IMG/VR virus record: IMGVR_UViG_3300035670_000155
DNA from: an uncultured virus (IMG/VR IMGVR_UViG_3300035670_000155)
Lineage: Duplodnaviria; Heunggongvirae; Uroviricota; Caudoviricetes
Strand: one strand, 5' to 3'
Length of the DNA: 64,000 nucleotides
The first letter of the stretch is position 1. Every line of letters starts with the position of its first letter. Position numbers and translations under genes: made by a program. The notes below the pieces were generated by a model. That model saw nothing but the letters and a program-made list of their open reading frames with translations. It ran no database searches and had not been told where the DNA came from. Positions 36,001 to 57,486 of this stretch are shown here, one piece after another.

Positions 36001-37980
36001 ATGGCGTTTTCCATCCTTGACCACCTTGAGCAGCTCGAACCCAGCAACGAGCCGGGCAAGTTTGTCTGTCCTGCATGCGGCGGCAATGACTTTACAGTCA
36101 ACAAGAGCACTGGCGGCTACAACTGCTGGCACGACGCTTCGCCCATGCACAGGGCTGAAATCAGGGATGCCCTTGCCCCCTTGTCTCGATGGGAAAAGCC
36201 ATCTCGCGAGCCCGGCCTGCATCATTTCTCTTATTACAACAATGAAGCCAAGGAAGTAGTTATTGTCCATCGCGATGATTCTTCAGGCGCAAAGCGCATT
36301 TGGCAAGATTTTCCCACAATCAAGAACGGCGAGAATCATAAAACTCAGCTTCAAGAAGTGAAGGCAAACGTGCTGCCTTTTCGTTACAAAGAAGCAATGG
36401 AGAAGAGTAATGAAACTGGCCTGCCTATTTTCATTGTTGAAGGAGAACTCACTTGCCAAGCAGTTTGGGCTCTTGACATTCCTTGCGTCACTTTCTTGGG
36501 GGGAAGCAAACAATATCGCACCAATGGAGATTATTCCGGCTTGTTCCGCAACAAGCAAGTGGTGCTTTGCCCCGACAGGGACCAGCAGGGTGTGGCCTTC
36601 ATGGCAGAAGTGGCCACTGACAATCCTGGAGCGCAGTGGCTATATGCTGACCCTCGTAGCTGGGAATGGGACAATCTCCCGCCCGGCAACGGCTACGACC
36701 TGGCCGACTACATCGAAGAAGGTGCCACTAAAGACGATCTGCTTGCTTCCATTGGAGCCTGTCGCCACAAAGGGCGTGATGGCAAGCCTTCTTACGAAGA
36801 GATTGTCTCCACCATTGAAAATTTTGTTGGCCTCTATGCCAATGATGCTCGCGTGGCTTATGAGACCGTGCTGTGGATGGAACAGCATGGCTTGAAGATG
36901 AGCCAGCAAAACATTGACAGAATTATTGATGAAGCCAAAGCTCGCATTTACGGCAGGGAGGAAATTGAAACCATTGATGCTCTCACCATTGCAGGCTCCG
37001 ACAAGGCTAGGGAATGGCTCATTGCAGGCATCATCCCTTTGGGAAGCGTGATGCTTCTGGCTGCCTCAGGCGGCACCGGCAAGAGCACTGTGGCTTACAA
37101 CTGGGCTCTCAATGTGGCACTGGGGCAGCCATGGAGCGGTAGAAGGTGCATGAAGGGCAAGAGCCTGATCATCCAAAGCGACGAGCCTCTTGTGGACACC
37201 AGCGAGAAGTTGGGCGTGATTGGCTATGAAGATGCGGGCCTTGCTCCTGGCACCATCAGCTTCTGGGAGAACTGGCGCTTTGCCCATATGAAACAGCTTG
37301 AGGACCATGTGAGGAAGCATCGCCCTTTGTTTGTTGCCATTGACTCTCTCACTGCTTGCCTTGCTGGCATGAACGTAGATTTGATCAAGAGCAATGCTGG
37401 TGATGTGATTTACGGACTGAGAGACATTGCCAATACATATCGCTGTTCTATTCTCATTCTTCACCATTTGAACAAAAGCGGAGGCCTGCGGGATAGCACT
37501 AGTTTTGTTGACAACGTTAGTGAAGTGGTGAAGCTCACTCGCGACGAGCAAAATTACGACCCTAATCAATTCATTCTCGAATGGTTGAAAAGCAGGAGCG
37601 GTCTCACTGGCAAGCATTCGCTACAGCGTGATGCGCTTAATTATGGCTGGCGCTATACGGGGCCGATGGGTGGCAGTCTTGAGGAGCTTGACAGGGTGGT
37701 CAATGCCATCAACATGCGCAAGACAGAACGATTCACGAAGCAGCAGGCAGCCATGCTTTGTGGCAACTTTGAAACCTCCTCCACTGGTAAGATGCTCGAG
37801 GTGGCCAGGCGGCAAGGCCTGATCACTAGCAGTTTCATCAATGGTCCCAATGGAGAAAAGCAGCGTCTTTACCATGCTTGGGAGTGGGAAGAACCCCTTG
37901 ACAACGACGAGCCCTTTGTTCCGTCCGCTCCCATTGTCCCTGCTGTGGCCGAAGAGCCCGCGCTCGAAGATATTTTCTGA
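36001..37980 (+). CDS. primase-helicase fusion (Zn finger, TOPRIM, RepA-like SF4 helicase)
   Basis: CPACG; IVEGE...CPDRDQQG...DLAD; Walker A ASGGTGKS; IDSL...ILHHLNK. Confidence 0.88.
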   Translation: MAFSILDHLEQLEPSNEPGKFVCPACGGNDFTVNKSTGGYNCWHDASPMHRAEIRDALAPLSRWEKPSREPGLHHFSYYNNEAKEVVIVHRDDSSGAKRIWQDFPTIKNGENHKTQLQEVKANVLPFRYKEAMEKSNETGLPIFIVEGELTCQAVWALDIPCVTFLGGSKQYRTNGDYSGLFRNKQVVLCPDRDQQGVAFMAEVATDNPGAQWLYADPRSWEWDNLPPGNGYDLADYIEEGATKDDLLASIGACRHKGRDGKPSYEEIVSTIENFVGLYANDARVAYETVLWMEQHGLKMSQQNIDRIIDEAKARIYGREEIETIDALTIAGSDKAREWLIAGIIPLGSVMLLAASGGTGKSTVAYNWALNVALGQPWSGRRCMKGKSLIIQSDEPLVDTSEKLGVIGYEDAGLAPGTISFWENWRFAHMKQLEDHVRKHRPLFVAIDSLTACLAGMNVDLIKSNAGDVIYGLRDIANTYRCSILILHHLNKSGGLRDSTSFVDNVSEVVKLTRDEQNYDPNQFILEWLKSRSGLTGKHSLQRDALNYGWRYTGPMGGSLEELDRVVNAINMRKTERFTKQQAAMLCGNFETSSTGKMLEVARRQGLITSSFINGPNGEKQRLYHAWEWEEPLDNDEPFVPSAPIVPAVAEEPALEDIF

Positions 37981-38187
37981 GCTAGTGGGCGAAGCTTTCA
38001 AGCAATAAAAAGCCCTCCTTTTGGAGGGCAAAGAATCAACTGGCATCTTTCCTGAGGCTTTTCCAACGTTCTCGCTCAAGAGCCTTTTCTTCTGAGCGCT
38101 GTTTTCCATAGAGCCAGGCGCTTGTTGATTGTCCTGGCTTAGGACCATTGCGGGGGAGGCGAATGATCTTTGGTTCTTCTGGAGGAG

Positions 38188-38406
38188 TCATGAGAAGAAA
38201 TCTTTTTCAAAGGACGATTTTCTTTCTTCGTTAGCTTTAACCACGTCGGAAGGGTGGGGAAGCTTAAGAGCAGTGCGAAGGGTGTCGCTCTCGAAGGCGA
38301 GAAGGCGCACCATGTCAGCAGTGGTGATGTTGCACTCTGGAAAGCGAGGAGCAACAATCTCCACGATTTCCAAATAGGCGCGTTTGTAGTCCATTTCTTG
38401 AGTCAT
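38188..38406 (-). CDS. hypothetical protein
   Basis: Last ORF of the minus-strand small-gene operon. Confidence 0.55.
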   Translation of the reverse strand: MTQEMDYKRAYLEIVEIVAPRFPECNITTADMVRLLAFESDTLRTALKLPHPSDVVKANEERKSSFEKDFFS

Positions 38407-38618
38407 TGATCCTCCAGTTCGGTGGCGATGGCGAGGAGTTTTTGGCGAATGTCATCCTGCCTGCGATTAGTTGATAGTGGAGCCACCTGATCCGCAGCAG
38501 CTCGCAGGGCAGCGGCAAGACCAAGCATGTCTTCTTCGTCAAGCGCACGGTCACGGGCTTTCCAGCAGGCTTCCAGCACCGTCTGCGTGACTGGGGAGAG
38601 GTTAGTCGTTGAGGCCAT
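38403..38618 (-). CDS. hypothetical protein (LSP...AAALRAAADQV family)
   Basis: Recurrent cyanophage small-protein motif; start uncertain. Confidence 0.6.
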   Translation of the reverse strand: MASTTNLSPVTQTVLEACWKARDRALDEEDMLGLAAALRAAADQVAPLSTNRRQDDIRQKLLAIATELEDQ

Positions 38619-38793
38619 TGAGATACTCATTTTGTGAAATTGTTGGCAGTGGATCACCAAGCGCTTCAAGAGCGCAGATCATGCACCAATACCCTTCGTG
38701 ACCTTCGATGGTGCTTGCAATAGTGTGTGGATGTGTTCCGTGTTTCGGGCAAATAACGCCAGGACCAGCCCACGTGTAGAGGAAATCAGTCAT
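38602..38793 (-). CDS. small zinc-binding protein
   Basis: CPKH...CMIC. Confidence 0.55.
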   Translation of the reverse strand: MTDFLYTWAGPGVICPKHGTHPHTIASTIEGHEGYWCMICALEALGDPLPTISQNEYLNGLND

Positions 38794-39107
38794 TGATTCC
38801 CCCAGCGAGCGAGGACAGCGTGGCAGATTTCCCATAAAGCTTCTGCACTTTCAAGGTCGTCGTTGTATTCTCCATTGCCATTTAGGTGAAACTCAAACTC
38901 CTCACAAAGTTCTGAAATGTCATCAAGCGTCGGCCCCTGCGGCTCGCGCCTAGTGTTCTGTCCAAGGAACTCCACCATCAAGCGATGGGCTTCACCAGCG
39001 TCAGCAATGAACTGGTCCCGGTAGTGGAAGCCTTCTTTTTCGAGGCGCAACACCTCTTCAGTTGATGGAGAACAGAATTTAATGCAGTTGGCGGGATGGT
39101 CAGTCAT
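38790..39107 (-). CDS. hypothetical mosaic protein
   Basis: EPQGPT...AVLARWG motif; ATGA coupling. Confidence 0.6.
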   Translation of the reverse strand: MTDHPANCIKFCSPSTEEVLRLEKEGFHYRDQFIADAGEAHRLMVEFLGQNTRREPQGPTLDDISELCEEFEFHLNGNGEYNDDLESAEALWEICHAVLARWGNQ

Positions 39108-39285
39108 CGTAGTGTGGGTAGCAAAAGAGTTTTTCAATGCGTTCAAGCTCAATCTCAAACTGTTCAGCTATGCAAAACGGTTGACAATTATGAGCTTCGG
39201 CTAGCTCGCTTAACTGAAAACACGTTACTTCACGAAGCTTTTCAAGAATAAAACAACGTAAGGCGCGTTTATGCACTAGCTTCAT
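39100..39285 (-). CDS. hypothetical protein
   Basis: AT-richer coupled ORF. Confidence 0.5.
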   Translation of the reverse strand: MKLVHKRALRCFILEKLREVTCFQLSELAEAHNCQPFCIAEQFEIELERIEKLFCYPHYDD

Positions 39286-39620
39286 TCGGGCAGCGCCTCC
39301 AGTGCGCGGCGGATGGTGTCGGTGATCTCGGGTAAGTAGTGCGCGTCGCGCTCAATGGTGCCCAGCATTTGCAAGGCAATACTGTTCAACGTTTGAGGCT
39401 TGGGGCGGCGAGCGGCGCGGAGAGCTGGCACTGCCTCGTGGACCACCCCGACGGGATCGGCCATAAGCCACTCACAGCACTTCTCCAGCTCAGTGTCGGC
39501 GCCCCATTGGGCACCAGCTTGGTAGGCGAGGTGAAGTCGCTCCAACCAGGTGAGCTTTGGCTCATCGCAAAGTTCCTGCACTAGCTCTGGCGGTGGGGTG
39601 ATGTTGTTGCTGTCAGTCAT
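39282..39620 (-). CDS. mosaic small protein, TPPPEL/RRPKP family
   Basis: ITPPPEL...QWGADTELEKCC...LRAARRPKP...IRRALE. Confidence 0.7.
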   Translation of the reverse strand: MTDSNNITPPPELVQELCDEPKLTWLERLHLAYQAGAQWGADTELEKCCEWLMADPVGVVHEAVPALRAARRPKPQTLNSIALQMLGTIERDAHYLPEITDTIRRALEALPE

Positions 39621-39954
39621 CGATTTGCTCCAAGGCGCGGCGGACAACGTTGGCAACATCTGCCGACAGGCGATCATCAGCAACAGCAGTGTCGATGGCC
39701 AGCAGCGCCTGCTCCTTCAAGGACGGCGGCTTGGGGCGTCTGGCAGCGCGGAGGTCGGAGGGACCAGCCATGAAATCGCGGTCCATCAGCTCACAGCACG
39801 CCTCCAGCTCCTGGTCGGCGCCCCATTGGGCGGCCTTTTCTGAAACGTATTGCATCCACGCCACAGGATCATGAAGGTCAATTCGCTGCGCTTGCTGAGC
39901 CCATAACCGACGCAACTCAGGCGGTGGGGTGACGGGGCTTTGATGGTTGGTCAT
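39613..39954 (-). CDS. mosaic small protein, TPPPEL/RRPKPP family
   Basis: VTPPPEL...QWGADQELEACC...LRAARRPKPPSLKEQAL...VRRALE. Confidence 0.7.
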   Translation of the reverse strand: MTNHQSPVTPPPELRRLWAQQAQRIDLHDPVAWMQYVSEKAAQWGADQELEACCELMDRDFMAGPSDLRAARRPKPPSLKEQALLAIDTAVADDRLSADVANVVRRALEQIDD

Positions 39955-40098
39955 GGAAGAATCCTGCTGGCAACAAAAATCAACAAAGCGCAGACGCTCC
40001 AATAGAGCGCTGCAATAAACCAAATGTCATGAGGCATGGGCATGGCATGGCCGAGGACTTCGTCATGGTACACCAGCGTCAACCATGCTCTTTCCCAT

Positions 40099-40390
40099 TG
40101 TGCCATTTTTTAACTGGCACACTGCCCTATTGACTTTTCAATTTATCCCTTTACCCTCGTCCGTAAGGGCGTTCCTTCGCGCATCTACGCGCCTAGGGAC
40201 GCCCGCTCGACGACGCGCAGAGCTAGACCACTGGCCCTGCGGCGCTTCTTCTGGAAAGGGACGATGGAAGGGAATAGTTGGATTCTCGATAAGCGTCGTT
40301 TATTGAGAATTCTGATAAGCTCCCTTCGTTAGAGCGCGTACGAGCAGGCGAGCCCCCAGGCGAGCTTATTCATAGCGCTCTTCTCAACAA
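40099..40390 (-). repeat. left arm of inverted non-coding homology (structured element copy A)
   Basis: Three blocks shared in the same order with 50370-50690 on the opposite strand. Confidence 0.75.
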
Positions 40391-40427
40391 TCTTCTCTTA
40401 AACTACAAAGGCTTTTTTACTGGCACA

Positions 40428-40664
40428 ATGCCTAAGCCTCCTCTCGCTCCTGACAAGCTTCCCACGCTCGATCACCAAGGCATCACAATTGAAGCCATTC
40501 ATCACCACGGCTTCTCCATGCCTGACAGGGGGCCTGCACCACGATCGCGCATGCTTTACGGGGCCCGCAACCCTGAAGATGGTGAGCGCCATTGGCGCAG
40601 CAGTTATGACGAAATTGTCTCTCTCATCAATCGCAACTTTGTCGCAAGCGGAGAGGCCTTATGA
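40428..40664 (+). CDS. hypothetical protein
   Basis: ORF. Confidence 0.55.
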   Translation: MPKPPLAPDKLPTLDHQGITIEAIHHHGFSMPDRGPAPRSRMLYGARNPEDGERHWRSSYDEIVSLINRNFVASGEAL

Positions 40665-40669
40665 CAGTA

Positions 40670-40698
40670 TTGACACTAGCTTTCTTGGCTGTCATAAT
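40670..40698 (+). promoter_or_regulatory. sigma70-like promoter
   Basis: TTGACA-N17-CATAAT. Confidence 0.7.
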
Positions 40699-40734
40699 TT
40701 GCTCGATCATCATCTTGCTTAACGAGACAGGCTT

Positions 40735-41052
40735 ATGATTTCGCAAGAAATGCTCGATCTTTTGAAAGAGCTAGAAACAATTAAAACCAATCAAAAAGCT
40801 CTTTCAGCTCGTGAAGAACAATGTAAGGCAGACATCTTCGAGCTAATGCGCGAGGAAGGTTCTGAAAGCTGCGACAGCCCTTATGGCACCATTCGCATTC
40901 AACGACGTTCCGAGAAGGACTATGGGAATGAAATAAGGAACATGGAAATTGCCCTTAAAGAAGCCCAAAAGCTGGCTGATGACATGGGAGATTTTTCCAT
41001 CCTGTCAGTTAAAGAGAGCCTTGTCTTCACCCTTCCGAAAGAAGTGTTTTGA
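40735..41052 (+). CDS. hypothetical coiled-coil protein (Gp157/Gam-like architecture)
   Basis: Helical N-terminus then YGTIRI; downstream of a promoter. Confidence 0.55.
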   Translation: MISQEMLDLLKELETIKTNQKALSAREEQCKADIFELMREEGSESCDSPYGTIRIQRRSEKDYGNEIRNMEIALKEAQKLADDMGDFSILSVKESLVFTLPKEVF

Positions 41053-41054
41053 CA

Positions 41055-41204
41055 ATGAACAAAGAAGAAGTGGCTGCAATGATTGATGCTAAAATCAAAA
41101 GCCATGAAATTAGGATTGGTTTAATTAGTGGCATTATTGGCTTGCTTTGCTTTGGAAGCATTGTTGCAGCCCTTCTTTTTCTTTACTATTTAGTTGCACA
41201 ATGA
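41055..41204 (+). CDS. small membrane protein (not in ORF track)
   Basis: MNKEEVAAMIDAKIKSHE plus TM helix, 49 aa. Confidence 0.6.
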   Translation: MNKEEVAAMIDAKIKSHEIRIGLISGIIGLLCFGSIVAALLFLYYLVAQ

Positions 41205-41377
41205 GCGCCCCCTTTGATCCTTCCCCATCGCTTTCTAAAGAAGAATGGAAAGAAATGAAAAGTTTGCTTCATGCCATCACTTTCTCTCCATCGTCCGTGG
41301 TGCCGCAAAAGCTTGAACGCTTTTCAGCTTTGTTCGCTAGAAGCCTAATAGGCAAAGGAAATGCGCCTTTAGAATAG
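41201..41377 (+). CDS. hypothetical protein
   Basis: LSKEEWKEM...P.SV.P.KLERF; ATGA coupling. Confidence 0.6.
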   Translation: MSAPFDPSPSLSKEEWKEMKSLLHAITFSPSSVVPQKLERFSALFARSLIGKGNAPLE

Positions 41378-41396
41378 AGGCCAATAAAGAACGACC

Positions 41397-42140
41397 ATGC
41401 CTCTTCCCGAGATTTCTTTTGCTTCCAAAGAAGAGCAGTTGCAATATGCAACGAAGGTGCTCGTTGAAGCAGGATTCACGCCAGAGCAAATCGACCGCAT
41501 TCGCAATAAAGTGGGACTAGGGCCTGGCAAAATCCCCTACGACAAAGATCTCACGGGACAGAGGCGCTACATGGTGCAGGAGCTGCTTGCGGCTCGCATG
41601 AGCAATAAGCAAATTGCCGAGGCCTTGCTCTTATCAAAAGAAACCGTAAGTTCCGACCGCATTCATAACCGTCAAATCTGGACTCATGAAATCTTGAAGA
41701 GCCAGGATACTTGGCGGGCACGGCTAGTCCAAGAACAAGACGAACTAAAGAACAAGGCTCTGGAATCGTTCGAGCAAAGCAAGCGCAAGAAAGTCACCAC
41801 TTACAACGAAGCCAAAGACGAAACCATTGTGCGCATTGAAGAAACTGCTGGAGAGAGTGGTTTCCTGGGCGTTGCACGCAGTTGCCTGGAGCAGCAAGCC
41901 AAGCTCATCGGCCTGTTCGACATCAAGCCTCAAACGGCAGAGAAGAGCGGCTACAAGAACTTCCTTGATACGCTCACCAAGGAAGTTAAAAAGATTCGCG
42001 AAGCCGAAAACAATTCGCAAGTGAGGGCGTCTGCCATTGATGCAGAGGCTGTAGAAGCTGAGCCTGAGTTTGATGACGATGGAGAGCCAACGGGCACCAG
42101 TAGGCCGCTCTTGGCCGCGCCAGAAGACGATGAGCCCTAA
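41397..42140 (+). CDS. HTH protein, possible terminase small subunit
   Basis: MSNKQIAEALLLSKETVSSD HTH, then helices with QAKLIGL. Confidence 0.5.
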   Translation: MPLPEISFASKEEQLQYATKVLVEAGFTPEQIDRIRNKVGLGPGKIPYDKDLTGQRRYMVQELLAARMSNKQIAEALLLSKETVSSDRIHNRQIWTHEILKSQDTWRARLVQEQDELKNKALESFEQSKRKKVTTYNEAKDETIVRIEETAGESGFLGVARSCLEQQAKLIGLFDIKPQTAEKSGYKNFLDTLTKEVKKIREAENNSQVRASAIDAEAVEAEPEFDDDGEPTGTSRPLLAAPEDDEP

Positions 42141-42225
42141 CATTCCCTTCCCATTGTTTCTTAAGCTTCATAGGGCTTGACAATGGCTTCGCTTGTCGTC
42201 AGGCTAGTGTTGTTGCTTTTCTTCC

Positions 42226-42690
42226 ATGGATTTTTCGCTTGGTTCTGTTGGCGATTTCTTGCGCAAAGCGCAGGGCGCAAAGGCTAAGCAGCGGGAAGCC
42301 ATCAACGAACACCTCGAGCCTTTCCTGGACGATCCCTCCACTTATGCCATGCCCCCCGCCATGGCAGCAGCCTTGGAAGATTTGTATGAGCAGTTTGGTG
42401 ATGAAGCCTTGAAACAAGTGGGCATGGTGGCCATTGGTAAATGGGCCTCCACTCATCAAGAAATGCTTGAAGAGCATTTGGCTAACGATGGCTATGCAGA
42501 AGCCATGCTTACCATGAACGACTTATCAAAAATCACCACTGCCCTTCGCATTCTTGCGGACATTGGCTCGTTTGGTGGAGACGAAGACTATCGAAACGCG
42601 CTGAAGAAGCAAATCAATCAGGCAGTGCTTGAACAAATTGAAGAGAGCGGCCGTAGCGTAGAAGACATTTTCAACGGAGGGGAATCATGA
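42226..42690 (+). CDS. hypothetical protein
   Basis: ORF. Confidence 0.6.
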   Translation: MDFSLGSVGDFLRKAQGAKAKQREAINEHLEPFLDDPSTYAMPPAMAAALEDLYEQFGDEALKQVGMVAIGKWASTHQEMLEEHLANDGYAEAMLTMNDLSKITTALRILADIGSFGGDEDYRNALKKQINQAVLEQIEESGRSVEDIFNGGES

Positions 42691-42823
42691 GCTGGCTAGG
42701 CCCTTATAAGATTATTTTTGAGAACGGTTTGCAATTGTGCCTCTTGGCCTATAACGAAAATCAGGCTCGGCTGCTTGCTTATGAGACAGTTCCCCTTCCC
42801 ATTGCTTTTGTTGTTGCTTTGCT

Positions 42824-43183
42824 TTGACGATGACCTCCTCAGCCCCTGCGCTAATCATGCCTCCCATGGTCACCATTTGCATTCCGCCCATCTTGAAGCA
42901 AGAAGCTGAGTATGTGGCAGCAGAAGAACCGTTGGTGCATCCCGCGTGGAAGAAGATGGCCCAGCAAGGGCGCCATTTCGTTCTGCGCACGTCTGAACTA
43001 AGCGACGTGGAGGAACTGGCCGATTGGGCATCGAGCTGGCTGGAAGAGCCTCTTGAACCATTGAACAAAGCTAAGCGGCAGGCTTTCCAAAATGTGATCG
43101 TCAGGGCAGGGAGACATGTGGTGTTGAGGCCGGTAGGCAAGGGAAGAATGCTGGCGATGGCATGGAAAACCAACGATAAGTAG
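42824..43183 (+). CDS. hypothetical protein
   Basis: ORF; start uncertain. Confidence 0.55.
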   Translation: MTMTSSAPALIMPPMVTICIPPILKQEAEYVAAEEPLVHPAWKKMAQQGRHFVLRTSELSDVEELADWASSWLEEPLEPLNKAKRQAFQNVIVRAGRHVVLRPVGKGRMLAMAWKTNDK

Positions 43184-43260
43184 CGCTAATCGCCAGAAGG
43201 CTTGACGAAGGCTCGAGAGCAGCGGCACACTAAGCAGGCGATCAATCCACTTTCCTTCCC

Positions 43261-43593
43261 ATGGCAACCATCTACCGCGACTCGCTTGGCACTTCTGCTT
43301 TCACCAAGAGCAATGCTCTGGTGATGAACGGCAATCACCCTGTCGTTGCATGGAGCTTTCGCATTAAAGACCTTGAAGAATGGCTCATTACATTAGAAGA
43401 GACCATGCTTCACGAGGAAAATATGGCCAACCGTCTTGTGATGGAAAGGCTCTTTTTCAGCCTCAAAGGAGCCCATTCCAAGCACAAGCAACAGCACGAT
43501 GAAATTCAAACTGAAGCTCCGTCCGAAGATGATCTTATGGCTTACCTTGAAGCTTATGCAGTGGCAATCAGCAGCGAACCCTACCAATACTGA
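43261..43593 (+). CDS. hypothetical protein
   Basis: ORF preceded by TTGACG-N18-CACACT and a pyrimidine leader. Confidence 0.6.
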   Translation: MATIYRDSLGTSAFTKSNALVMNGNHPVVAWSFRIKDLEEWLITLEETMLHEENMANRLVMERLFFSLKGAHSKHKQQHDEIQTEAPSEDDLMAYLEAYAVAISSEPYQY

Positions 43594-43694
43594 CAAACAG
43601 GGAGCGGCCCTGCGCAATGATGATGACTATGATGACTGGGAAGTAGGCATGGAGCCCATACCAGGAGACACTTCTTGGATCAGCGTCAATCACT

Positions 43695-43718
43695 AGCGCC
43701 CTTAAGGGGCGCTTTTTA
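43695..43718 (+). terminator. rho-independent terminator
   Basis: AGCGCCC-TTAAG-GGGCGCT-TTTTT. Confidence 0.7.
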
Positions 43719-43751
43719 ATGCAAGGAGCTAAGCCTCCCACAAAGCAATAG

Positions 43752-43941
43752 AAAAGGGGAGCTTTCGCTCCCCCTTCCCGCTGCTTAAGCTTCCGATGCT
43801 CCATTGTCCCTCAACAAAGGGGAACAGTGCCCTACAGGCCCATGCATTGCCTTGGTGGTTCTCGCGAAGTCACCCACTGTTCTGAAGCGTCCACCCTTAC
43901 GGCGTCAACGACGGAGCTTTCGCTCAGGACCAACTCAAGCT
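43752..43941 (-). ncRNA. candidate structured ncRNA (~190 nt)
   Basis: Own extended -10 (TGcTATGCT), nested stems, GNRA loops, terminator. Confidence 0.55.
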
Positions 43942-44053
43942 TGCAAAGCATAGCACCTTGACTGGGCCCCGGCACAAGGTCTTGACGACTTTGGTACAGT
44001 AAGGGCTGCCAGGAGGCGACTCCCTGGTCCCTGCTACTTACTTTCTTTTCCTG

Positions 44054-44416
44054 ATGCTTTTTCGTTTTCTCTCTGCTGCTTCCGTTGCCCTTGGTGCTTT
44101 GGTACCATTTGCTGCGGAGGCTGGATCGTCGTGCGGCTCGGTTTCGCACTATGGCATTGGTGATGGCTATCACGGCCAAAGAGCCGCTGATGGCAGTCGC
44201 TTTGATGCCTACGGCCTCACAGTTGCCTCTCCATCGCTTCCTCTCGGCACCCGCTTGCGCGTGGTGAATCCAGCCAATGGGAAGTCAGTGATGGTGAGGG
44301 TGACCGACCGAGGTCCTTGGTATGGCGATCGCATTCTTGACCTTTCTTACGGTGCTTTTGCTCGCGTGGCCAATCCCTCACAAGGAGTTGCACGACTCTG
44401 CTACGCCAGGGCATGA
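44054..44416 (+). CDS. rlpA: RlpA-like (DPBB) lytic transglycosylase with signal peptide
   Basis: YHGQRAADGSRFD...LPLGTRLRVVN...VRVTDRGP...RILDLS. Confidence 0.85.
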   Translation: MLFRFLSAASVALGALVPFAAEAGSSCGSVSHYGIGDGYHGQRAADGSRFDAYGLTVASPSLPLGTRLRVVNPANGKSVMVRVTDRGPWYGDRILDLSYGAFARVANPSQGVARLCYARA

Positions 44417-44438
44417 TGCCGAAGAACGAGAATCCACG

Positions 44439-44466
44439 AGCGCCCCGCAAGGGGCGCTTTTCTTTT
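44439..44466 (+). terminator. rho-independent terminator
   Basis: AGCGCCCC-GCAA-GGGGCGCT-TTTCTTTT. Confidence 0.8.
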
Positions 44467-44552
44467 GCCGGCTGGCCTTGTATTGCAAAAAGCAACAAAG
44501 GCTCAATGGGGGCGGGCTGGCTCGGTATTGTGAGCTGGTTCGCCTCTTTTCC

Positions 44553-44735
44553 ATGCAGTCCTTCTTTGCTTTTGCTGCGCTTTCTGGCATGCTCACTGTT
44601 CTGGCCTGGTCCTATGTGACCCATCCCCAGCAGCCAGACAATCAGCAAGCCTACTCCAAATGCATAGAGCACCATCCTCAACAGTACTGTCGCTTTGAGC
44701 ACTTGCCCAGCACTATTACCCATAAGCAGCGCTAA
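44553..44735 (+). CDS. small membrane protein
   Basis: N-terminal TM segment, own promoter. Confidence 0.55.
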   Translation: MQSFFAFAALSGMLTVLAWSYVTHPQQPDNQQAYSKCIEHHPQQYCRFEHLPSTITHKQR

Positions 44736-44815
44736 TGGCCCAGGGGCTTCACAAAAGGCCTCGGACCAGCGATCATGGTCACCAAGGGCGCGAGCCCACC
44801 TTTCCCTTCCCTCCA

Positions 44816-45094
44816 ATGGACAAAACCAGCATCATTAAGCAGTTCGTTTTCGAGGCTGGCAGCAGCATCATCAGCGTGCAGTTTGTCAAGGCTGATGGCG
44901 CCGTGCGCAAGCTTCAGTTCAACCCTCGCGACTCGCAAGAAATCAAGGGCACGGGCCATGCTCTCAAGAAGCCCTCGATCATCCGCTGCCGCGATTTCGC
45001 CATCGCCCGCAAGGAAGGGCAAGGAGCCTGGCGTTCGTTTGATTGCGAGCGCGTGACCAGCATCAAGGCCAATGGTAAGGAGCTGGTGTTCTAA
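44816..45094 (+). CDS. SH3/WYL-like beta-barrel protein
   Basis: SVQFVKADGAVR...AWRSF...VTSIKANG. Confidence 0.65.
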   Translation: MDKTSIIKQFVFEAGSSIISVQFVKADGAVRKLQFNPRDSQEIKGTGHALKKPSIIRCRDFAIARKEGQGAWRSFDCERVTSIKANGKELVF

Positions 45095-45096
45095 TC

Positions 45097-45279
45097 ATGG
45101 CAGTTCTTGATCGCGACAACTTCTGGAGCCTATGGGCACTGTCGGACATGGCATGGACCATGCTCGACTCCAGCCCTGACAGGCAAGCCCTAGAACGACA
45201 AGCCAGAAGCCTCAAGGCCGTGTTCATCACCAAAACGTTCATGGTGGTACAGGGCACGCAGAGCCCAGGCCGTTTGTAA
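45097..45279 (+). CDS. hypothetical protein
   Basis: ORF. Confidence 0.5.
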   Translation: MAVLDRDNFWSLWALSDMAWTMLDSSPDRQALERQARSLKAVFITKTFMVVQGTQSPGRL

Positions 45280-45364
45280 ACAATTGTTGCGGAGGGACTG
45301 GCCAGGCCCCTCCTGCCTGTACATTACTGTCACAGGGCCGCGAGGTCCACCTTCCTTTCCTCCC

Positions 45365-45616
45365 ATGGTCAACTACTCCCAACACAGCGGTCCCATCCGC
45401 CGCTACCTCCGCAAAGAACTGCTCCACTTCACTGATGGCACCATTGCCGAACACACCAGCAAGGAAGTAGAGCGTCTTGCCTTCCCCGAGCACGAGCCCC
45501 CCATTGTTTCAAACCTTGGCTTGTGGGTGGTGCCAGCTTCCGCTTACTACCTGCAATCCTGGAAGGACATCAACCCTGCCATTAGCAACGTCACTTTCTC
45601 CTACAAGAGCCTCTGA
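45365..45616 (+). CDS. hypothetical protein
   Basis: ORF with early-type leader. Confidence 0.55.
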   Translation: MVNYSQHSGPIRRYLRKELLHFTDGTIAEHTSKEVERLAFPEHEPPIVSNLGLWVVPASAYYLQSWKDINPAISNVTFSYKSL

Positions 45617-45618
45617 TC

Positions 45619-45879
45619 ATGGCAACCGTTCCTACCGTCCATCTCAACGGCACCGGCTTTACCACGCTGCGCGATGGTTACGCTGCTGCGTACGATGCCA
45701 TTGACAAGGCCATTGATGCCCTGGCAAAAGCCGAGTTGAATGGTCGGGATTTCTATCCGCAAGCGCCTGGCGCCTACTACCAGGCTCGTGCTGAGCGTGA
45801 CGATGCTTTTGATCAGCTTCGTGCTGTTCAGGCTTATGTGGGCGAGATGCTCGCTGGCATTTGCGACCAACGTCGTTGA
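45619..45879 (+). CDS. hypothetical protein
   Basis: PTVHLNGT...NGRDFYPQ conserved-looking motif. Confidence 0.65.
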   Translation: MATVPTVHLNGTGFTTLRDGYAAAYDAIDKAIDALAKAELNGRDFYPQAPGAYYQARAERDDAFDQLRAVQAYVGEMLAGICDQRR

Positions 45880-45983
45880 TTGTGACGATTTGTTAACTGG
45901 CCCTTGCTCCATTTGACTTTTGTCGGAACAAGGGCTAACTTTTGGATCAAGCGGCTCGACCCCGCTCCCTTCTCTCCAAACCC

Positions 45984-46994
45984 ATGGCTCATCAATTTTC
46001 TTCCGGCGCTTTCTTCCACGGCCAAGCCGCTTGGCACAAGCTTGGTCACGTGGTGGATGGCACCCTCCCTGCTCGCGAAGCTTTTGCCCTTGGCGAAGCC
46101 GACTGGGAAGTCATCAGCACTCCCATCTTTGATCCCGCTGGCCAGCCCATTGAAGGCTTCCAGGCCATCACTCGTGGTGACAATGGGAAAGTGCTTTCCG
46201 TTCAGAAAGAAAGCTACACGCTCGTGCAGAACGAACAGCTCATTCGTCTGGCCGAGGCCCTGCACGAAGATGCAGAAATGAGCGCAGTGTGCGTGCTCGA
46301 CGAGGGCCGTAAAGTCACCTTCACTGCCAAAATCAATGGCGCAGAAGGCGAAGTGCTCAAGGGTGATGAAATCTGTCAGTACATTGTTGGCGCCACTAGC
46401 CACGATGGTTCCATCGCCTTCCAAACCCTCTTCACTCCCGTGAGAGTGGTTTGTGCCAACACGCTCAGCGCTGCTCTTGGCCATGCCGAACACACTGGTG
46501 CCACCGGCAAAGGCAAGCGTATCAGCATTCGCCACACGATGAACGCCAATGCAATGATCGAGAGGCTTCCCGAAATCATTGACATCAAGCGCCAGCAATT
46601 TACTGCCGGGCTTGAGGAGCTGGAAGCAATGGCGGCAAAGCCCTGCACCAGTGCTCAGTTCAAGGCCTATTGCGAAGCCGTGTTTGCTGACCAACTGGCT
46701 GGCACTGTCAACGCTAAGCGCGGCGATAAGACCACTGCTCGTCCCAAGACACTGGCTGACCTGCCTCAGTAGGACAGCGTGGCCAACAAGTTTGCTGGTG
46801 ACGGCATTGGCTTCGACATCAAAGGCGTGCAAGGCACCTACTGGGGCGCCTACAACGCCATCACCGAGTGGGTGACGCACGAGGCTGGTCGTGGTGATGA
46901 CATCGAGGCTGCTCGCAGGCGCCTGGAAAGCCAATGGTGGGGCACTGGTGCTGCCACCATCACCAAAGCCCATGCCCTGGCTCTGGCGGCCTGA
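45984..46994 (+). pseudogene. DUF932-family protein interrupted by an in-frame TAG at 46770-46772
   Basis: AWHKLG...VQNE...SHDGS...TPVRVVCANTL, continuing in frame to GTYWGAYNAITEW. Confidence 0.75.
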
Positions 46995-47375
46995 TTGTAA
47001 AGATAAGCAACAGTGATCGTTTAAGGGGCTGGAAACGGCCCCTTTTTGTTTTATTGTTGTTTCAACGAGCCGAGGGGCTCTCCACCGATTTCCAGCCATG
47101 CAAACCATCGTTCTCTTCCGCCTTTTCGAGCAAACCCCTGATGGAGCCATTCGCCAGTGCGGCTTCACCGGCCCCGATCGTGAAGAAGCCCTGCTCTGGC
47201 AGCAAGAAATGCAACAGTGCTTCCCCGCCAATCGCCACTGGATACGACCGGTGTTCAACCATGCAAGTGCCTAACCACCAGCACAACAGCGGCAAGCCTC
47301 CCAAGCGGAGGCTCAAGCCACAAGCCCTAAGGGCCGCCAGAGCCCGCAGACAAGCCCTTCTCAACCAGCTCCATC

Positions 47376-47561
47376 ATGCAAGACGCAATCAACATCCTGG
47401 CCATCAGCAACAAAGGCCGTAGCCGCATTGGCACCACTATCACTACTGCCATTGTTGAGCAAGATCACCACGACAAGCTTTTCATTGTGCTGCCGCAGCA
47501 TAATCAATGTCGATGGATAAAGAAAACAAACGATCCTGATTTTCGCATTATTGAGGACTGA
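47376..47561 (+). CDS. hypothetical protein
   Basis: ORF. Confidence 0.55.
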   Translation: MQDAINILAISNKGRSRIGTTITTAIVEQDHHDKLFIVLPQHNQCRWIKKTNDPDFRIIED

Positions 47562-47715
47562 TCATGACCGCCCTTTCCATTGTTTGGCTGTTCAAAGACG
47601 ATCAAGGTTATGAAGACTATGCTCAGTCTGAAGAAGAGCGTGATCAGCTCCATTTGATTTACAAAGAAGCTGGCACCAATTATTCCGTCACTGAACTCAT
47701 CAGAGGAGAAGATCA

Positions 47716-48021
47716 ATGATCACCATTCGCAACTATTCTGACAACGGCCCTTATTTTCCTCCCACGCAAGGCATCTATCAGGCCAGCTCTCTCAAAGAAC
47801 TCCTTTTCCATGTGAGACTGTGCATAGAAGACGGAGACTATCAAATAGGAGTGTTTGATGACAATGGAGAATGTAAAGGCTTCTGGGTGGATGAAGCAGA
47901 GCCTATTGATGATGGAGAGGGCTGTATGGTGCTTGGTCCTAAGTGCTACGTGCTCTACAGGCCTGGCAGCATCGGCAAAGGATTGTGGAACCTTCACCTC
48001 GCCAAATTCAAGAGGGCTTGA
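47716..48021 (+). CDS. hypothetical protein
   Basis: ORF. Confidence 0.55.
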   Translation: MITIRNYSDNGPYFPPTQGIYQASSLKELLFHVRLCIEDGDYQIGVFDDNGECKGFWVDEAEPIDDGEGCMVLGPKCYVLYRPGSIGKGLWNLHLAKFKRA

Positions 48022-48023
48022 TC

Positions 48024-48179
48024 GTGATTCTCATTGATTATTTTTCTGAGGCCTGCTGCAAGGGCACAGAACTCGTTGAAGGCTGGTATTGGTATGAAGA
48101 CGATGGGGATGAAGTGGGAGGGCCGTATGACAACGAAGAAGCCGCTATTGAAGCGGCTCAGAAGCAGGAAGACTGGTGA
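48024..48179 (+). CDS. small acidic protein
   Basis: GTG start; EGWYWY...GPYDNEEAAI. Confidence 0.5.
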   Translation: MILIDYFSEACCKGTELVEGWYWYEDDGDEVGGPYDNEEAAIEAAQKQEDW

Positions 48180-48188
48180 GGCTGGTGA

Positions 48189-48297
48189 GGTCCGGCTATG
48201 GTTTTAAAAGATCCGGCTGCGAGCCTAAAAGACCCGGCTCGCAGTCTAAAAGGGTCCGGCTCGCTCGGTATCTAGGGTCCGGCTCGCTTGGTATCTA
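48189..48297. repeat. five imperfect tandem repeats, CCGGCT core, period 21-23 bp
   Basis: Cores at 48192, 48213, 48234, 48256, 48279. Confidence 0.85.
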
Positions 48298-48731
48298 TTG
48301 CAATTGCGACGCATTCTCAATTGCTTTTATGCGCATAACCGCATAATAGTACAAATGTACTATTATAAGCAAATCTTATCATTCCGGCCTGATCTATCAG
48401 CATTGCTTATCATATAAGGGATTGTGAACAATACGGTTCCCCGGTCGGGAATGTGCGCTTTTATTGTCCGGTTCCCTAGTGGGGAATAGGGGATTCTGGC
48501 CAGTCGATTCCCCGGTTCGCCGATCGGAAATAGCGCGTTACAGAATGTGACAATCGCGCTCAGTCTCGCCCGTCTCGCGCTATGGGCGGCGGTGTTGCGC
48601 AGTGTGACAATGGCGGTTGACAGTGTGGGGGGATGCATGGTATCCGCGCGGGCGCGATTTCTTTCTTTCCCCTTATGGTCGCCGCCCCGTAGGCTCCTGG
48701 ACAATCGGCCAAACCACAAAACCGCCACACC

Positions 48732-48777
48732 GTCCAGGACCTTGGGACACTTGCGCAAGTGTCCCAAGGTCCTGGAC
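48732..48777. repeat. 46-bp perfect palindrome
   Basis: GTCCAGGACCTTGGGACACTTGC|GCAAGTGTCCCAAGGTCCTGGAC. Confidence 0.95.
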
Positions 48778-48848
48778 CGTGGGCCAGATTGGCGGCATGA
48801 TGGCGTCAAGCGATCGGAGACGGTCGCCGCAGTTCCTACTTTCCTTTC

Positions 48849-49064
48849 ATGAAAGATTCACAACTTCTAGGGTTTTGGACTATGGGCGCCAATGGTCTCC
48901 CTGCAGATCGCCCGCAATGGCGCCGCCCCGTAATGCCGGGCGAGACCATGCCGCCGGCCCCTAGGTCTCGCAATGGCGCCGCCCCTAGCCTGCCGCCCCT
49001 GCAGTATCGGCAGACTATGAGCGGGCGTCGTGTTGCATGGGATGAGCCGGGCGAAACTTTCTAG
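48849..49064 (+). CDS. hypothetical proline-rich protein
   Basis: Early-type leader (hairpin plus pyrimidine tract). Confidence 0.4.
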   Translation: MKDSQLLGFWTMGANGLPADRPQWRRPVMPGETMPPAPRSRNGAAPSLPPLQYRQTMSGRRVAWDEPGETF

Positions 49065-49104
49065 GCTTTCTTTCTTTCCTTTCTTTCTTTCTTTCTTTCA
49101 AATC

Positions 49105-49818
49105 ATGAAACTTTCCGCGCTTTCCTTCCATTTGACCGTTAAGTCTGACAACGCCAAAACCGGGCCGATGGCAGTCAGTACAAGTTCAAAGGCTACTTGT
49201 TCCCCTTCCTGCCCTTTCCTGCCGGAGAATGGCGGCGGCTGTTACGCTCAGTCTGGCCCGCTTAACTTGCACTGGCTTAAGGTTACCAGCGGCGAGCGTG
49301 GGGAAAGTTGGGCCAAGTTCCTGAATAAGCTTTCTTTCCTTCCTGCAGGTTCGCCATTTCGCCACAACCAAGCCGGCGATCTTCCGCACAATAACGGAAA
49401 GATCAGTGAAACTTTTATCAGGAAGATGATCCTAGCAGTGTCACACTTGCGGGCCTACACTTACACTCACCACAAGCTAACCCTAGGGGAGAATCTTTCT
49501 CTCATCAGGAAAGCAAACCGCGCAGGGTTCACTATCAACGTAAGCTGTGAAAGCGAGGCACAAGTGGATGAAACAATCGCCTGCAATCTTCCTGCCGTCG
49601 TTGTAGTGAAAAGCGATGAAACTAGGACGCAATGGCGCACACAAGCCGGCAACATCGTTCTAGTTTGTCCGGCACAACGTAGCGACACTGTAACCTGCGC
49701 AGACTGCATGCTGTGTCACAAGCGCGGCAAAAGGGTTGCCATTGGCTTCCTGGCCCATGGTACCGGCAAAAAGCGCGCGGAGGCTAGCCTGGAAGCCTCT
49801 CAGAGCGCCGCAGGTTGA
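49105..49818 (+). CDS. Cys-rich phage protein, possibly degenerate radical-SAM-like
   Basis: SDNAKTG...TCSPSCPF...GCYA...RHNQAGD...YTYTH...CPAQ...CADCMLC...FLAHG. Confidence 0.65.
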   Translation: MKLSALSFHLTVKSDNAKTGPMAVSTSSKATCSPSCPFLPENGGGCYAQSGPLNLHWLKVTSGERGESWAKFLNKLSFLPAGSPFRHNQAGDLPHNNGKISETFIRKMILAVSHLRAYTYTHHKLTLGENLSLIRKANRAGFTINVSCESEAQVDETIACNLPAVVVVKSDETRTQWRTQAGNIVLVCPAQRSDTVTCADCMLCHKRGKRVAIGFLAHGTGKKRAEASLEASQSAAG

Positions 49819-50369
49819 CGCTACGGGGAAAGATGGGGCCCCAGGAAAGATCGGTGTTCCTGGGGCTTGTAGGGGAAATTCTCAACAACAGCGACTATTG
49901 CGAACGACTCATCACCATTCCTGATCAAACCAATCCGCCAAACTGTAGCAACGGATACAGACACAGAGCAGTAGCGGGTGGTATGGGCGTGGATTGGGGC
50001 GGGGTTACCCCCGTTAAAAGCGACGTAATTTTCAAACGACTTTTTTTGCTTTTGCTCACCGCGCTACATTCTTTTCGTTTATTTTCCATGGCCCGAAAGC
50101 TAGTGCGCACTGCGCGAACGATCTAAAGCTTGCGAAAGGGAGTGAGCGCACTAAGATTGTTCCCGAACGTGCAATCGTTCTCAAACATAAGATTGTGCAA
50201 AGAAGGGGCCTATGTTAAGGAGCCGCCCCAAGCGGCGTTGTTCGTGCCCCTTCTTTAGTCTCAATATTGTCTCAAACTAGTCTTAAATGAGACTGGCGGT
50301 AGCTGCGCACACCATGGGCGATCAAACTACTGTCAGAAAAGAAATGGTTGAAAGGAAGGTGGCAGGGAG

Positions 50370-50690
50370 GGAGCCCTAGGATCGTACGCCTTGGGGGCTA
50401 ATGCTCGTAACGGGCTCCTAGCGAAGGTTTCTTAAAAGAAGCAGTCGAGAGGAGGGTTGTTGAGAAGAGCCGCTATGAAAAGGTCGCTTTGGGCTCCCGC
50501 TCGAAGCGGCTCAGGCGAAGGAAGCTTAACTGCTCGTGACAAACGTTCGTAGATGCGTTGCTTGTCAGTGGAATACGCTGCGCCTATATACAGTGTACAG
50601 GCTAATCTCATGAGTCTCAAGCTGTCTCATAATGAGACTGTAGTCATAGCTTGATTCTTGATGATTGTGCCAGTTAACAAACTGGCTTTT
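50370..50690 (+). repeat. right arm of inverted non-coding homology (structured element copies B and C)
   Basis: Shares blocks with 40099-40390 on the opposite strand. Confidence 0.75.
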
Positions 50691-50742
50691 ATGAGCAAAT
50701 TAAAACAATAATTGCTTCGGTTAGCATGATTTCCTTTCTGCC

Positions 50743-50985
50743 ATGGCTTACACGGACAGTCGTTGCGACTATGTAGAAGTGACGGAACTATGGAGGGTGT
50801 ATGTGCCTTCTGAGCGCTCTTGGAACAAAGCAGTAAGAGAGCTTGAGAAAGCCATCAAGCCAGAAAAGACCAGCTTTTACCGCTCAGGACTGCTAGCCCG
50901 TAACCACGGGCATCAAATGGACTTAATGAACTGGCAGTTGACAAAAGGCGAAGACCAGCTACCCTGCTCCTATCCCGACTGGTGA
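50743..50985 (+). CDS. hypothetical protein
   Basis: ORF. Confidence 0.55.
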   Translation: MAYTDSRCDYVEVTELWRVYVPSERSWNKAVRELEKAIKPEKTSFYRSGLLARNHGHQMDLMNWQLTKGEDQLPCSYPDW

Positions 50986-51392
50986 AACCATCGGGGCTCC
51001 CTCCCCGACTGGTGATCACCGTGCCCTTCGACGAAGAACTGTTCGCTCTTGCCATGGACCACACAAGCAGCTCAGAGCTTCCTGCCCTGAAGAAGCGCTT
51101 TAAAGGCTTTTCCATTTGTAAAGACATGGCCACTGCTGCTGCCTTTGGCTACCTTGCCGCCATGCGCGATCAAGAAAAAGAAAACGCCGCTGAAGAGACC
51201 ACCATTTTCGACAGGGTGTTTGCCACTATTGAACACCCTGCCACTAATGCCTGCGAAACTACGGAAATCATCATGGGGCTTGTATTTCTTTGGCTCAAGG
51301 AAGAATTTATTGAAGAAGGCTTCGCTGGTACTATCATCGACTTCCTAGAAGAACGCTTTGCTTCCTATGTCAAGCCCAGTGTTCTTGATTAG
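50982..51392 (+). CDS. hypothetical protein
   Basis: GTGA-coupled ORF. Confidence 0.5.
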   Translation: MKPSGLPPRLVITVPFDEELFALAMDHTSSSELPALKKRFKGFSICKDMATAAAFGYLAAMRDQEKENAAEETTIFDRVFATIEHPATNACETTEIIMGLVFLWLKEEFIEEGFAGTIIDFLEERFASYVKPSVLD

Positions 51393-55775: not shown

Positions 55776-55844
55776 TGCTCTTTAGTGTTGGATACACGTT
55801 GGGCCGATAGCCCAGAATGCCGGGTTCGATTCCTGGAGGAGCCC
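55776..55844 (+). tRNA. degenerate tRNA-like element (anticodon GAT, Ile-like)
   Basis: Acceptor TGCTCTT/AGGAGCC, D stem GTGT/ACAC, anticodon arm TTGGG-CCGATAG-CCCAG, T arm CCGGG-TTCGATT-CCTGG. Confidence 0.6.
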
Positions 55845-57070: not shown

Positions 57071-57486
57071 CCTTCAGGCCACACAAGGGCGGTAGCCGTA
57101 GACTGAAGCCAACTGCGCCTGATGAAGCCTTGCGGCCTTCAGGAGCTGCAGCTTCACAAGCATGAGCTTGTTCACGACCGTTCCTCCATGGTCCCCATCC
57201 CCCGTTTCCTGGATGGCTTGCATGCACCCTTTGCAGGGCAAACGTATCTTCAGTGTATCAAACCATGCCTCACGCTGGAATCAAACCAGCTTTCATCATC
57301 AGAAGAGGCGAGAGGCAGAATGTTTCCGCATCAGGAAACAAACAGGGTGCGGCCCTGACATTCTGCCAAGTGTCCCAAGTGCTTCAACTCACTTAAGACG
57401 GTGAACGGAATCCACGATGGTGCCAGCATTGACGAGGATACTGGCAAGCCGTTGGCCAACGGGCTCCTGCAGGAAGCTTTGCAAGC

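Follow-up and report, generated by a model that had tools for sequence, protein, structure and literature searches.

Locus and element copies

The stretch analysed here, hereafter the window, comprises 64,000 nucleotides of DNA from an uncultured virus (IMG/VR record IMGVR_UViG_3300035670_000155), in which two non-coding arms lying 10 kb apart carry copies of a two-stem hairpin, the element in question, on either side of a long early operon. The window phage is an S-CBS4-like cyanosiphovirus with siphovirus-type gene content, including a tape-measure-sized open reading frame (ORF), tail genes, terminase, ribonucleotide reductase genes and a primase/helicase at 36001-37980; Synechococcus phage S-CBS4 is its closest cultured relative (58% identity in the primase/helicase), and the record G001 is a fragment 100% identical to the window. 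A leftward operon, extending to ~38036 from a listed start at 40106 that more likely lies nearer 40040, is followed by the left arm, the rightward early operon (40428-50126, 10 kb), the right arm and two small rightward genes within 50743-51392, with replication genes on both sides of the arms in Pfam and PHROGs scans. The left arm corresponds by homology to the outer portion of the right arm, with the order inverted, and left arms from five relatives can be aligned over ~270-320 nt. The sequences by which an initial annotation had recognised this inverted pair were all found where it had placed them.

The hairpin, 50-60 nt long, occurs in the window in four copies, L, T, R2 and R1 (Table 1), two on each strand. 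The initial annotation had counted three copies and proposed an element needed once per strand; the fourth, copy T, was found by a scan for the two-stem anatomy and is inverted, lying like copy L on the minus strand in that annotation's orientation and opposite to R2 and R1.

Table 1. Positions of the arms, hairpin copies and predicted control features in the window
Feature	Position	Strand	Details
Left arm	40107..40427		Non-coding, between leftward operon and rightward gene 40428-40664
Right arm	50127..50742		Non-coding
Copy L	40331..40381	+ (strand thought transcribed)	P1 40331-40337/40375-40381; P2 40352-40354/40359-40361
Copy T	50198..50257	+	P1 12 bp, GC-rich, 50198-50209/50246-50257; P2 GCCGC/GCGGC, 50222-50226/50232-50236
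Copy R2	50369..50419	- (strand thought transcribed; plus in the initial annotation)	P1 50369-50376/50412-50419
Copy R1	50467..50512	- (strand thought transcribed; plus in the initial annotation)	P1 GAGCCGCT/AGCGGCTC
Predicted inward promoter, left arm	40129..40156	+	TTGACT, 16 nt, TACCCT
Predicted inward promoter, right arm	50592..50620	-	TTGAGA, 17 nt, TACACT
Outward (leftward) -10-like TACCAT	40065..40070	-	Downstream of copy L in the initial annotation's orientation
Outward -10-like TAGCAT	50722..50727	+	For gene 50743-50985
Palindrome TGTGCCA-N9-TGGCACA	40099..40121	.	Includes TTAACTGGCACA box; repeat family D1; between the back-to-back left-arm promoters
TGTGCCAGTTAA box and hairpin GCCAGTT-AACA-AACTGGC	50666..50686	.	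Between inward promoter and outward promoter of gene 50743
Hairpin GCGC-AUCUAC-GCGC	40170..40200	.	CGTAGATGCG on the other strand; near 5' end of predicted left leader
Hairpin with CGTAGATGCG	50540..50570	.	Right-arm counterpart of 40170-40200
First GTCTCA/TGAGAC cluster	50258..50293	.	Between T and R2
Second GTCTCA/TGAGAC cluster	50614..50638	.	Overlaps -35 region of right inward promoter

A hairpin family with two covarying stems

Searches of IMG/VR around two neighbouring proteins and by a conserved pattern returned 139 loci. A profile made from the first ten copies yielded 33 distinct copies and confirmed 21 of 27 pattern matches, and a covariance model built from related copies gave 44 matches from 33 sources at E<=0.001, of which 35 were distinct; this family of 35 distinct copies comes from 23 IMG/VR contigs, and the model matches all eight metagenome loci, on eight contigs. 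In the window it scored copy R2 at 95.2 bits (50345-50451), copy L at 88 bits (40298-40405, E 5.8e-18) and copy T at 8.2 bits on the minus strand (E 0.03 in a 246-nt search) versus 3.5 on the plus strand, while copy R1, which was suppressed in the covariance-model search because it overlaps the R2 flank, was matched by nhmmer with E 1.7e-22 over 50448-50539. The left copy and R1 share 76% identity over 76 nt, and an alignment of L, R2 and R1 has a mean column identity of 72%.

The outer stem, P1, is 7-16 bp long and has a different sequence in every copy of one phage. Across the 35 distinct copies, 97.5% of its cells pair, compared with 69.4% in shuffles (none of 500 as high) and 33-51% in slid controls, and six of the seven P1 pairs are changed on both sides, in an alignment that was fitted to the model and in which the double changes stem partly from a register shift between copy types. 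The proposal of the initial annotation that the closing stem differs between copies and always pairs is thereby borne out over a much larger set, and the divergence of P1 between copies within one phage implies that P1 matters for its pairing, and not as a sequence to be recognised. The inner stem, P2, covaries as well (GCC/GGC, GCCC/GGGC, GGCC/GGCC, GACC/GGTC, GCTCC/GGAGC, GCCGC/GCGGC and GCCCTC/GAGGGC). Conservation is highest in the joining strands and the P2 loop, above that of both stems, and on the inward strand all four window copies take the RNA form CCUUCGC, P1, UACGAGCAGG, P2 with a CCCCAA loop, a variable strand, P1' and a C/U-rich tail. Folds of single copies are no more stable than those of shuffled sequences (z -0.4 to -1.0), so that the support for the structure comes from covariation and not from energy. 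The arms hold no conserved ORF, their small ORFs being short and mostly with non-ATG starts, and copies differ in length by numbers not divisible by three; the element is therefore taken to be non-coding. Its sequence shows it to be a structured module on which selection acts and whose copies lie within predicted early transcripts.

Copy T lies 72 nt past the last gene of the long operon, with an A-tract before and a U-tract after its stem, which is followed by CTTCTTTAGT on the plus strand and by CTTCTTTG on the minus strand; a consensus scan listed sub-hairpins at 50222-50248. Judged by this anatomy, copy T is a bidirectional terminator of the long operon, and it shares with known bidirectional intrinsic terminators the series of A-tract, GC-rich stem and U-tract at a point where transcription units converge. 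It differs from them in that its 36-nt interior carries the P2 and joining strands of the family, and the remaining copies have no U-tracts of this kind: a GC-rich stem followed directly by a U-tract was found in copy T only. The weakness of U-tracts outside copy T makes simple termination unlikely as the function of the family. The copies could in principle be punctuation only, either terminator or insulator hairpins that were duplicated and have since diverged, or sites in double-stranded DNA, kept because they separate transcription units, as the terminator anatomy of T and the location of all copies at operon boundaries would suggest. We consider this distinctly improbable, since joining strands and a P2 loop that are more conserved than the stems would be needless for a plain terminator, R2, R1 and L are without U-tracts, and a double-stranded DNA site recognised by its sequence would hardly have three different P1 sequences within one phage.

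Distribution and fixed architecture

Among five near-complete relatives, three have the outward-facing pair as in the window, one has a more complex set and one has a double copy only; the long operon always has a single copy at its start and several at its end. These two sites lie 10.6 kb (G002), 12.3 kb (G003), 12.5 kb (G006) and 15 kb (G004) apart; G005, a contig without the left arm, carries T and R only. Opposite-strand equivalents of T adjoin R copies at loci L143, L125, L146 (two), L029, L030, L145, L131 and L152-L154. The strand pattern of the window, with L and T alike, R opposite and the operon on the L/T-form strand, holds in G002, G003, G004 and G006, where in G006 copy T was missed by the two-stem scan and identified by eye. 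S-CBS4 has no copy (best score 12.1 bits, E 1.1); it retains a counterpart homologous to the left-arm palindrome, as well as a simple terminator hairpin with GTCTCAAT after it. Separately, metagenome contigs show that other strains carry a third copy type in place of part of R2-R1. As a possible sign that the segment inverts, a strand change at the arms was looked for in metagenome DNA contigs of four runs, which consist of fragmented unitigs; there is none among the 15 joints listed, with 58 further joints beyond these, and the differences seen are strain variants in the R copies and an insertion at 50285.

A search of the whole window against Rfam 15 at gathering thresholds matched Glutamine-II only and left the element unmatched, and both strands of both arms gave only chance-level scores of 14.9 and 12.3 bits at E<=10. 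The strict pattern had no match in bacterial and archaeal genomes; a looser pattern had at least 120 matches there, which are regarded as chance, none of 80 loci scoring >17 bits. Megablast of 39900-51000 and blastn of the left arm alone found no match in a phage database. The covariance-model and Rfam searches that the initial annotation had suggested thus recovered the family in relatives and no known family, in keeping with its idea of an undescribed structured RNA: two stems covary, and the element recurs in 23 IMG/VR and eight metagenome contigs. A mobile repeat of the MITE or REP type was considered and rejected, because the terminal stems vary while the interior is conserved, all copies lie at the same two syntenic sites and no bacterial genome yielded a confirmed copy. 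In a catalogue of more than ten thousand candidate phage RNAs, the portion of the text covered does not mention the element, and its motif words are absent from six supplementary files, with files 1, 2 and 4 outside that search and free to list it (PMC10690425). Listings of the literature on S-CBS4, at the level of titles, yielded nothing on non-coding elements. The family is real, structured and apparently unnamed, and its place in the architecture of early control is constant in a group of cyanosiphoviruses.

The arms as divergent promoter regions

Sequence comparison identifies both arms as homologous divergent promoter regions. From the inward promoter of the left arm, a predicted leader of ~265 nt (~40163 to 40427) would run through copy L into gene 40428, for which there is no other intergenic space to hold a promoter. 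In all six left arms, a TAnnnT hexamer followed by CGTCC or CCTCC occupies the same alignment column (TACCCT twice, TACAAT three times, TAGGAT once). From the inward promoter of the right arm, a predicted transcript of ~390 nt would extend from ~50586 down to terminator T at ~50195 and contain R1 and R2; no ORF of >=63 aa was found in it, the longest being one of 62 aa with a TTG start at 50620, upstream of the predicted transcription start. Outside the last R copy, 11 of 13 right arms have an inward TAnnnT followed 5-8 nt on by [AT]GG[CA]G, for which the background rate is 0.026 per 200 nt. Of the two arms that lack it, at least L130 does so because of where its sequence was cut. The hexamers read TACACT, TACGAT (twice), TAGAAT, TATAAT, TACAAT (three times), TAGTCT, TATGAT and TATACT. 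Invariance of T1, A2 and T6 with free middle bases is the signature of a -10 box under selection.

Each outward -10 stands back to back with an inward promoter. The leftward one, GGTGTACCATGA or GGTGTACAATGA (TACCAT or TACAAT), is kept in five of six left arms and was not seen in L103, and a TAGCAT or TATGAT just 5' of the start codon was identified by eye in five right arms (window, L029, L131, L133 and L145). The palindrome between the left-arm promoters is probably a protein-binding site; its TTAACTGGCACA box also precedes a third promoter-like site, TTGACT-17-TAACTT, at 45888-45940. TGTGCCAGTTAA occurs exactly at 40110-40121(-) and 50666-50677(+) and with one mismatch at 40416-40427(-), and allowing <=2 mismatches it has 12 matches versus 5.1 expected, a number that none of 100 shuffles reached. 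CGTAGATGCG lies at 50548-50557 and its reverse complement at 40180-40189, each in a hairpin. Of 23 GTCTCA sites in all 64 kb of the window, six are concentrated in the 381 nt of 50258-50638, GTCTCA-N2-3-TGAGAC palindromes are conserved in relatives, and these repeats look like operators or iterons; their overlap with the -35 region of the inward promoter gives them an operator-like character. In co-occurring strains, an 11-nt insertion, AATGAGAAAAC, at 50285 places an extra TGAGA half-site between T and R2.

Two further sites adjoin the left arm or lie within it. Directly after gene 40428-40664, a near-consensus promoter (TTGACA, 17 nt, CATAAT, with TG before the -10; 11 of 12 positions) at 40662-40698(+) sits in an inverted repeat, TTATGACAG...CTGTCATAA, and is probably a second, operator-controlled start of the long operon. 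A palindrome, TTCTCGATAA-N7-TTATTGAGAA, in the interval 40268-40320 is conserved in sequence even in S-CBS4 (L142, 25735-25790), a phage that is itself without the hairpin family, and is more likely a DNA operator than an RNA stem.

Strand use and a proposed regulatory role

The strand that is read appears to be the inward one. The predicted left leader folds at -113.2 kcal/mol with z -5.46, compared with z -1.66 for the other strand; the inward strand is better folded in all six left arms (z -1.2 to -4.8 versus +1.1 to -2.9) and has the lower z in nine of 11 right arms. A helix of CCUUC with the conserved GAAGG has five A-C mismatches on the strand favoured by the initial annotation, which become G-U pairs on the inward strand. 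Inward transcription would place L, T, R2 and R1 all in one RNA form and would explain the otherwise odd orientation of copy T, an explanation that holds in four relatives as well. With an inward -10 in 11 of 13 right and all six left arms, and with the better inward folds of the left arms, the strand chosen by the initial annotation is probably reversed.

With a probability that we put at roughly 45%, the hairpin is a regulatory RNA module on inward transcripts, acting in cis as leader and terminator and in trans as a multi-copy paralogous RNA. The outward promoter of each arm would drive the flanking genes and the inward promoter a long structured RNA with the hairpin. Copy L would thus lie in the ~265-nt 5' leader of the 10-kb early operon, with copy T as the terminator hairpin of that operon, and R1 and R2 would be part of a ~390-nt non-coding RNA that converges on the operon and stops at T as well, the terminator being bidirectional. 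The conserved joining strands and loop may bind one factor, be it a phage protein, a host protein or RNA polymerase, which would act in cis on the operon leader and 3' end through elongation, termination or stability, and for which the right-arm RNA, under the control of the GTCTCA operators, would compete in trans. We infer the production of these RNAs, the binding of a factor and the direction of regulation from the features described above.

Several observations weigh against this interpretation. The -35 boxes are poorly conserved, and the tails of L, R2 and R1 are C/U-mixed or purine with weak or no U-tracts. P1 is nearly free of wobble, with one G-U in 243 cells, which would fit a DNA hairpin or use of both strands too. 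Extension of P1 by wobble pairs favours the strand of the initial annotation, with 31 versus 8 pairs gained in a set of 50 candidate copies that includes at least two false positives and many close relatives, so that copies are not independent; P2 of R1-type copies has a U-G pair on that strand only, and absolute folding energy is lower on it in 10 of 11 right arms. The two strands of the right arm of the window are alike (z -1.36 versus -1.54), and RNAalifold energies of the left arms are similar on both strands (-30.5 versus -31.8). Finally, the proteins beside the arms belong to no named family in Pfam, PHROGs, NCBIfam or the ESM Atlas, the sole exception being a weak LuxR-type helix-turn-helix match in 41397-42140.

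The wobble extension also speaks for an opposite assignment, in which the orientation of the initial annotation is right and purine-rich RNA hairpins start outward transcripts and act in cis on polymerase or downstream genes, as lambda nut and HK022 put sites do. Copies do face outward in the window, G002, G003 and G006, and a TAGTTT hexamer lies 18 nt before P1 in both L and T. S-CBS4 lacks the downstream genes (the leftward operon and genes 50743 and 50982), which do occur in those element-bearing relatives whose sequence extends over them. We nonetheless hold outward transcripts to be an unlikely explanation. Copy T would then point antisense into the last operon gene, and the second left copy in G006 abuts the start of a divergent gene and leaves no room for a promoter. 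The candidate outward -10 varies in both sequence and spacing, TAnnnT-like hexamers occurring in about three of seven T and four of six L copies at distances of 1 to 18 nt. Well-conserved outward -10 boxes downstream of the copies mean that outward mRNAs need not contain them at all; moreover, the left arm folds worse on this strand in six of six cases.

The conflict between the strand tests could also mean that both strands are transcribed over the right arm and that the sense and antisense RNAs pair through loop-loop contacts, like the RNAs that control plasmid copy number. A near absence of wobble in P1 would be expected if the stem formed on both strands, and the loops of T and R are complementary (UUGGG versus CCCAA), but only the inward promoter is well conserved, and we judge such a pair to be highly improbable.

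Comparison with replication signals

The initial annotation had likened the arms to paired priming signals of the ssiA/ssiB type for the primase-helicase. In IncQ plasmids (RSF1010), ssiA and ssiB, as described in the part of the source covered, are 40-nt signals with a hairpin at nt 7-27, each present once in one compact oriV and used by the RepB' primase (PMC8567376). The element shares with them homologous hairpins inverted on complementary strands and a replicon that encodes its own helicase and primase. It differs in having a core of 50-60 nt with two stems and an interior of 35-40 nt, at least two copies per strand, arms 10 kb apart and conserved promoters that read through the copies, and thus lacks the defining combination of 40 nt, one hairpin, one occurrence per strand and a single oriV. 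Among 32 ORFs in 33.8-55 kb, scans with Pfam and PHROGs picked out a primase/helicase (phrog_239, AAA_25) and no RepB' family. The analogy is not supported: each strand of the window has two copies where one would be needed, the arms are too far apart for one compact origin, every copy is traversed from a conserved promoter -10 box, and S-CBS4 has a primase-helicase and no copy.

A broader version would make the hairpins single-stranded DNA signals near an origin, with the GTCTCA repeats as iterons, the A/T-rich spacer between T and R2 as an unwinding element, and T and R as sites for priming or loading of the primase-helicase. It accommodates the replication genes on both sides, the almost purely Watson-Crick P1, the differing stem sequences, which show that intrastrand pairing is what is selected, and the spacer of 90-140 nt between T and R, which has repeats at 10-11 bp spacing and, in relatives, A/T runs. 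We regard it as quite unlikely all the same. The primase-helicase of S-CBS4 is orthologous (58% identity) and that phage has no copy, and the scan of 32 ORFs revealed no RepB'-type primase domain. Copy L would be 10 kb away from the putative origin, the overlap of the GTCTCA palindromes with a conserved promoter -35 region is as expected of operators, and the conserved 5' and 3' flanks reach well past a 40-nt signal. Nor did GC skew, which the initial annotation had proposed as an origin marker, reveal in the window and three relatives any origin-like switch at the arms beyond the difference in composition of the whole operon, whose GC content is higher (0.54-0.57 versus ~0.50) with C>G on the coding strand, the structural genes showing the opposite; this bias is also found in G002, G003 and G006.

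Functional analogies

The nearest functional analogies for the regulatory RNA module may be the nut and put sites and the CsrB and GlmY decoys. In lambdoid phages, lambda nutL/nutR and HK022 putL/putR are paired cis-acting RNAs of early transcripts. Such antitermination sites lie ahead of terminators in the nascent early transcript and have boxA/boxB or, for put, a fold of two stems. The element shares with them two homologous structured sites in mirror orientation around an early control region, covarying stems, a position in predicted early transcripts and a proposed action on early-operon transcription. Unlike nut and put, it has no sequence or model similarity to them (no Rfam match) and no boxB-like GAAAA pentaloop hairpin was seen; its sites lie 10 kb apart and flank a whole operon, its best-supported predicted transcripts converge and do not diverge, one copy would be a terminator, and the right-arm RNA apparently encodes nothing. 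The host is moreover cyanobacterial, and no N-like protein was recognised. Decoy RNAs, in turn, mimic or are paralogous to a regulated leader, as CsrB/RsmZ do for CsrA targets and GlmY for GlmZ. Like them, the right-arm RNA would be a multi-copy structured RNA bearing the motif of an mRNA leader, which suggests competition for one factor; the motif is unrelated, no CsrA-like or RapZ-like partner was found, and the analogy is one of logic only.

Taken furthest, these likenesses would describe an RNA competition circuit, in which the hairpin marks the leader and the terminator of the operon, and an operator-controlled RNA with two or three more copies titrates the factor that reads these marks or, by read-through of the terminator, silences the operon antisense. 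This full circuit is speculative, and we think it improbable as a whole.

Neighbouring genes and other features

The proteins adjacent to the two arms are unrelated to each other, and a common downstream protein for both arms was rejected on this ground. Gene 40428-40664, adjoining copy L, has a homologue in S-CBS4. At the end of the operon, a stem at 50095-50175 pairs the last codons of gene 49815-50126 with sequence past the stop codon and covaries between phages (UGCGC/GCGCA versus UGUCC/GGACA), with TAR -> AVR as the only change in the protein.

In the leftward operon, 38036-40023(-) is an array of small genes, including two phrog_32006 paralogues, with >600 relatives in IMG/VR and with metagenome contigs of very high summed depth and many joints, which suggests a region of fast-swapping cassettes. 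The ESM Atlas record of 39613-40023 begins at residue 24, so the annotated 5' end of this ORF is probably promoter and not coding.

A Glutamine-II (Downstream-peptide) riboswitch aptamer at 57194-57247(-) scores 34.1 bits against a gathering score of 33 and supports a cyanobacterial (picocyanobacterial) host. Kinship of the hairpin element with this riboswitch was rejected, the true Glutamine-II aptamer of the window being unlike the element. A tRNA-Ile (GAT) gene lies at 55777-55844(+) among genes of nucleotide metabolism.

Implications

Gene regulation in cyanosiphoviruses is, to our knowledge, almost unstudied, and the hairpin adds to it an apparently unnamed element whose position in early control is constant across a widespread phage group of fresh and estuarine waters. 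Its mirror arrangement points to a duplicated unit of promoter and leader and not to a replication origin. The cyanobacterial host of the window phage presumably has no Rho, and in such a host the competition circuit, if true, would constitute a timing switch for early genes. If the hairpin is a regulatory RNA with a paralogous competitor, it would offer a testable model for how these phages time the expression of their early genes.

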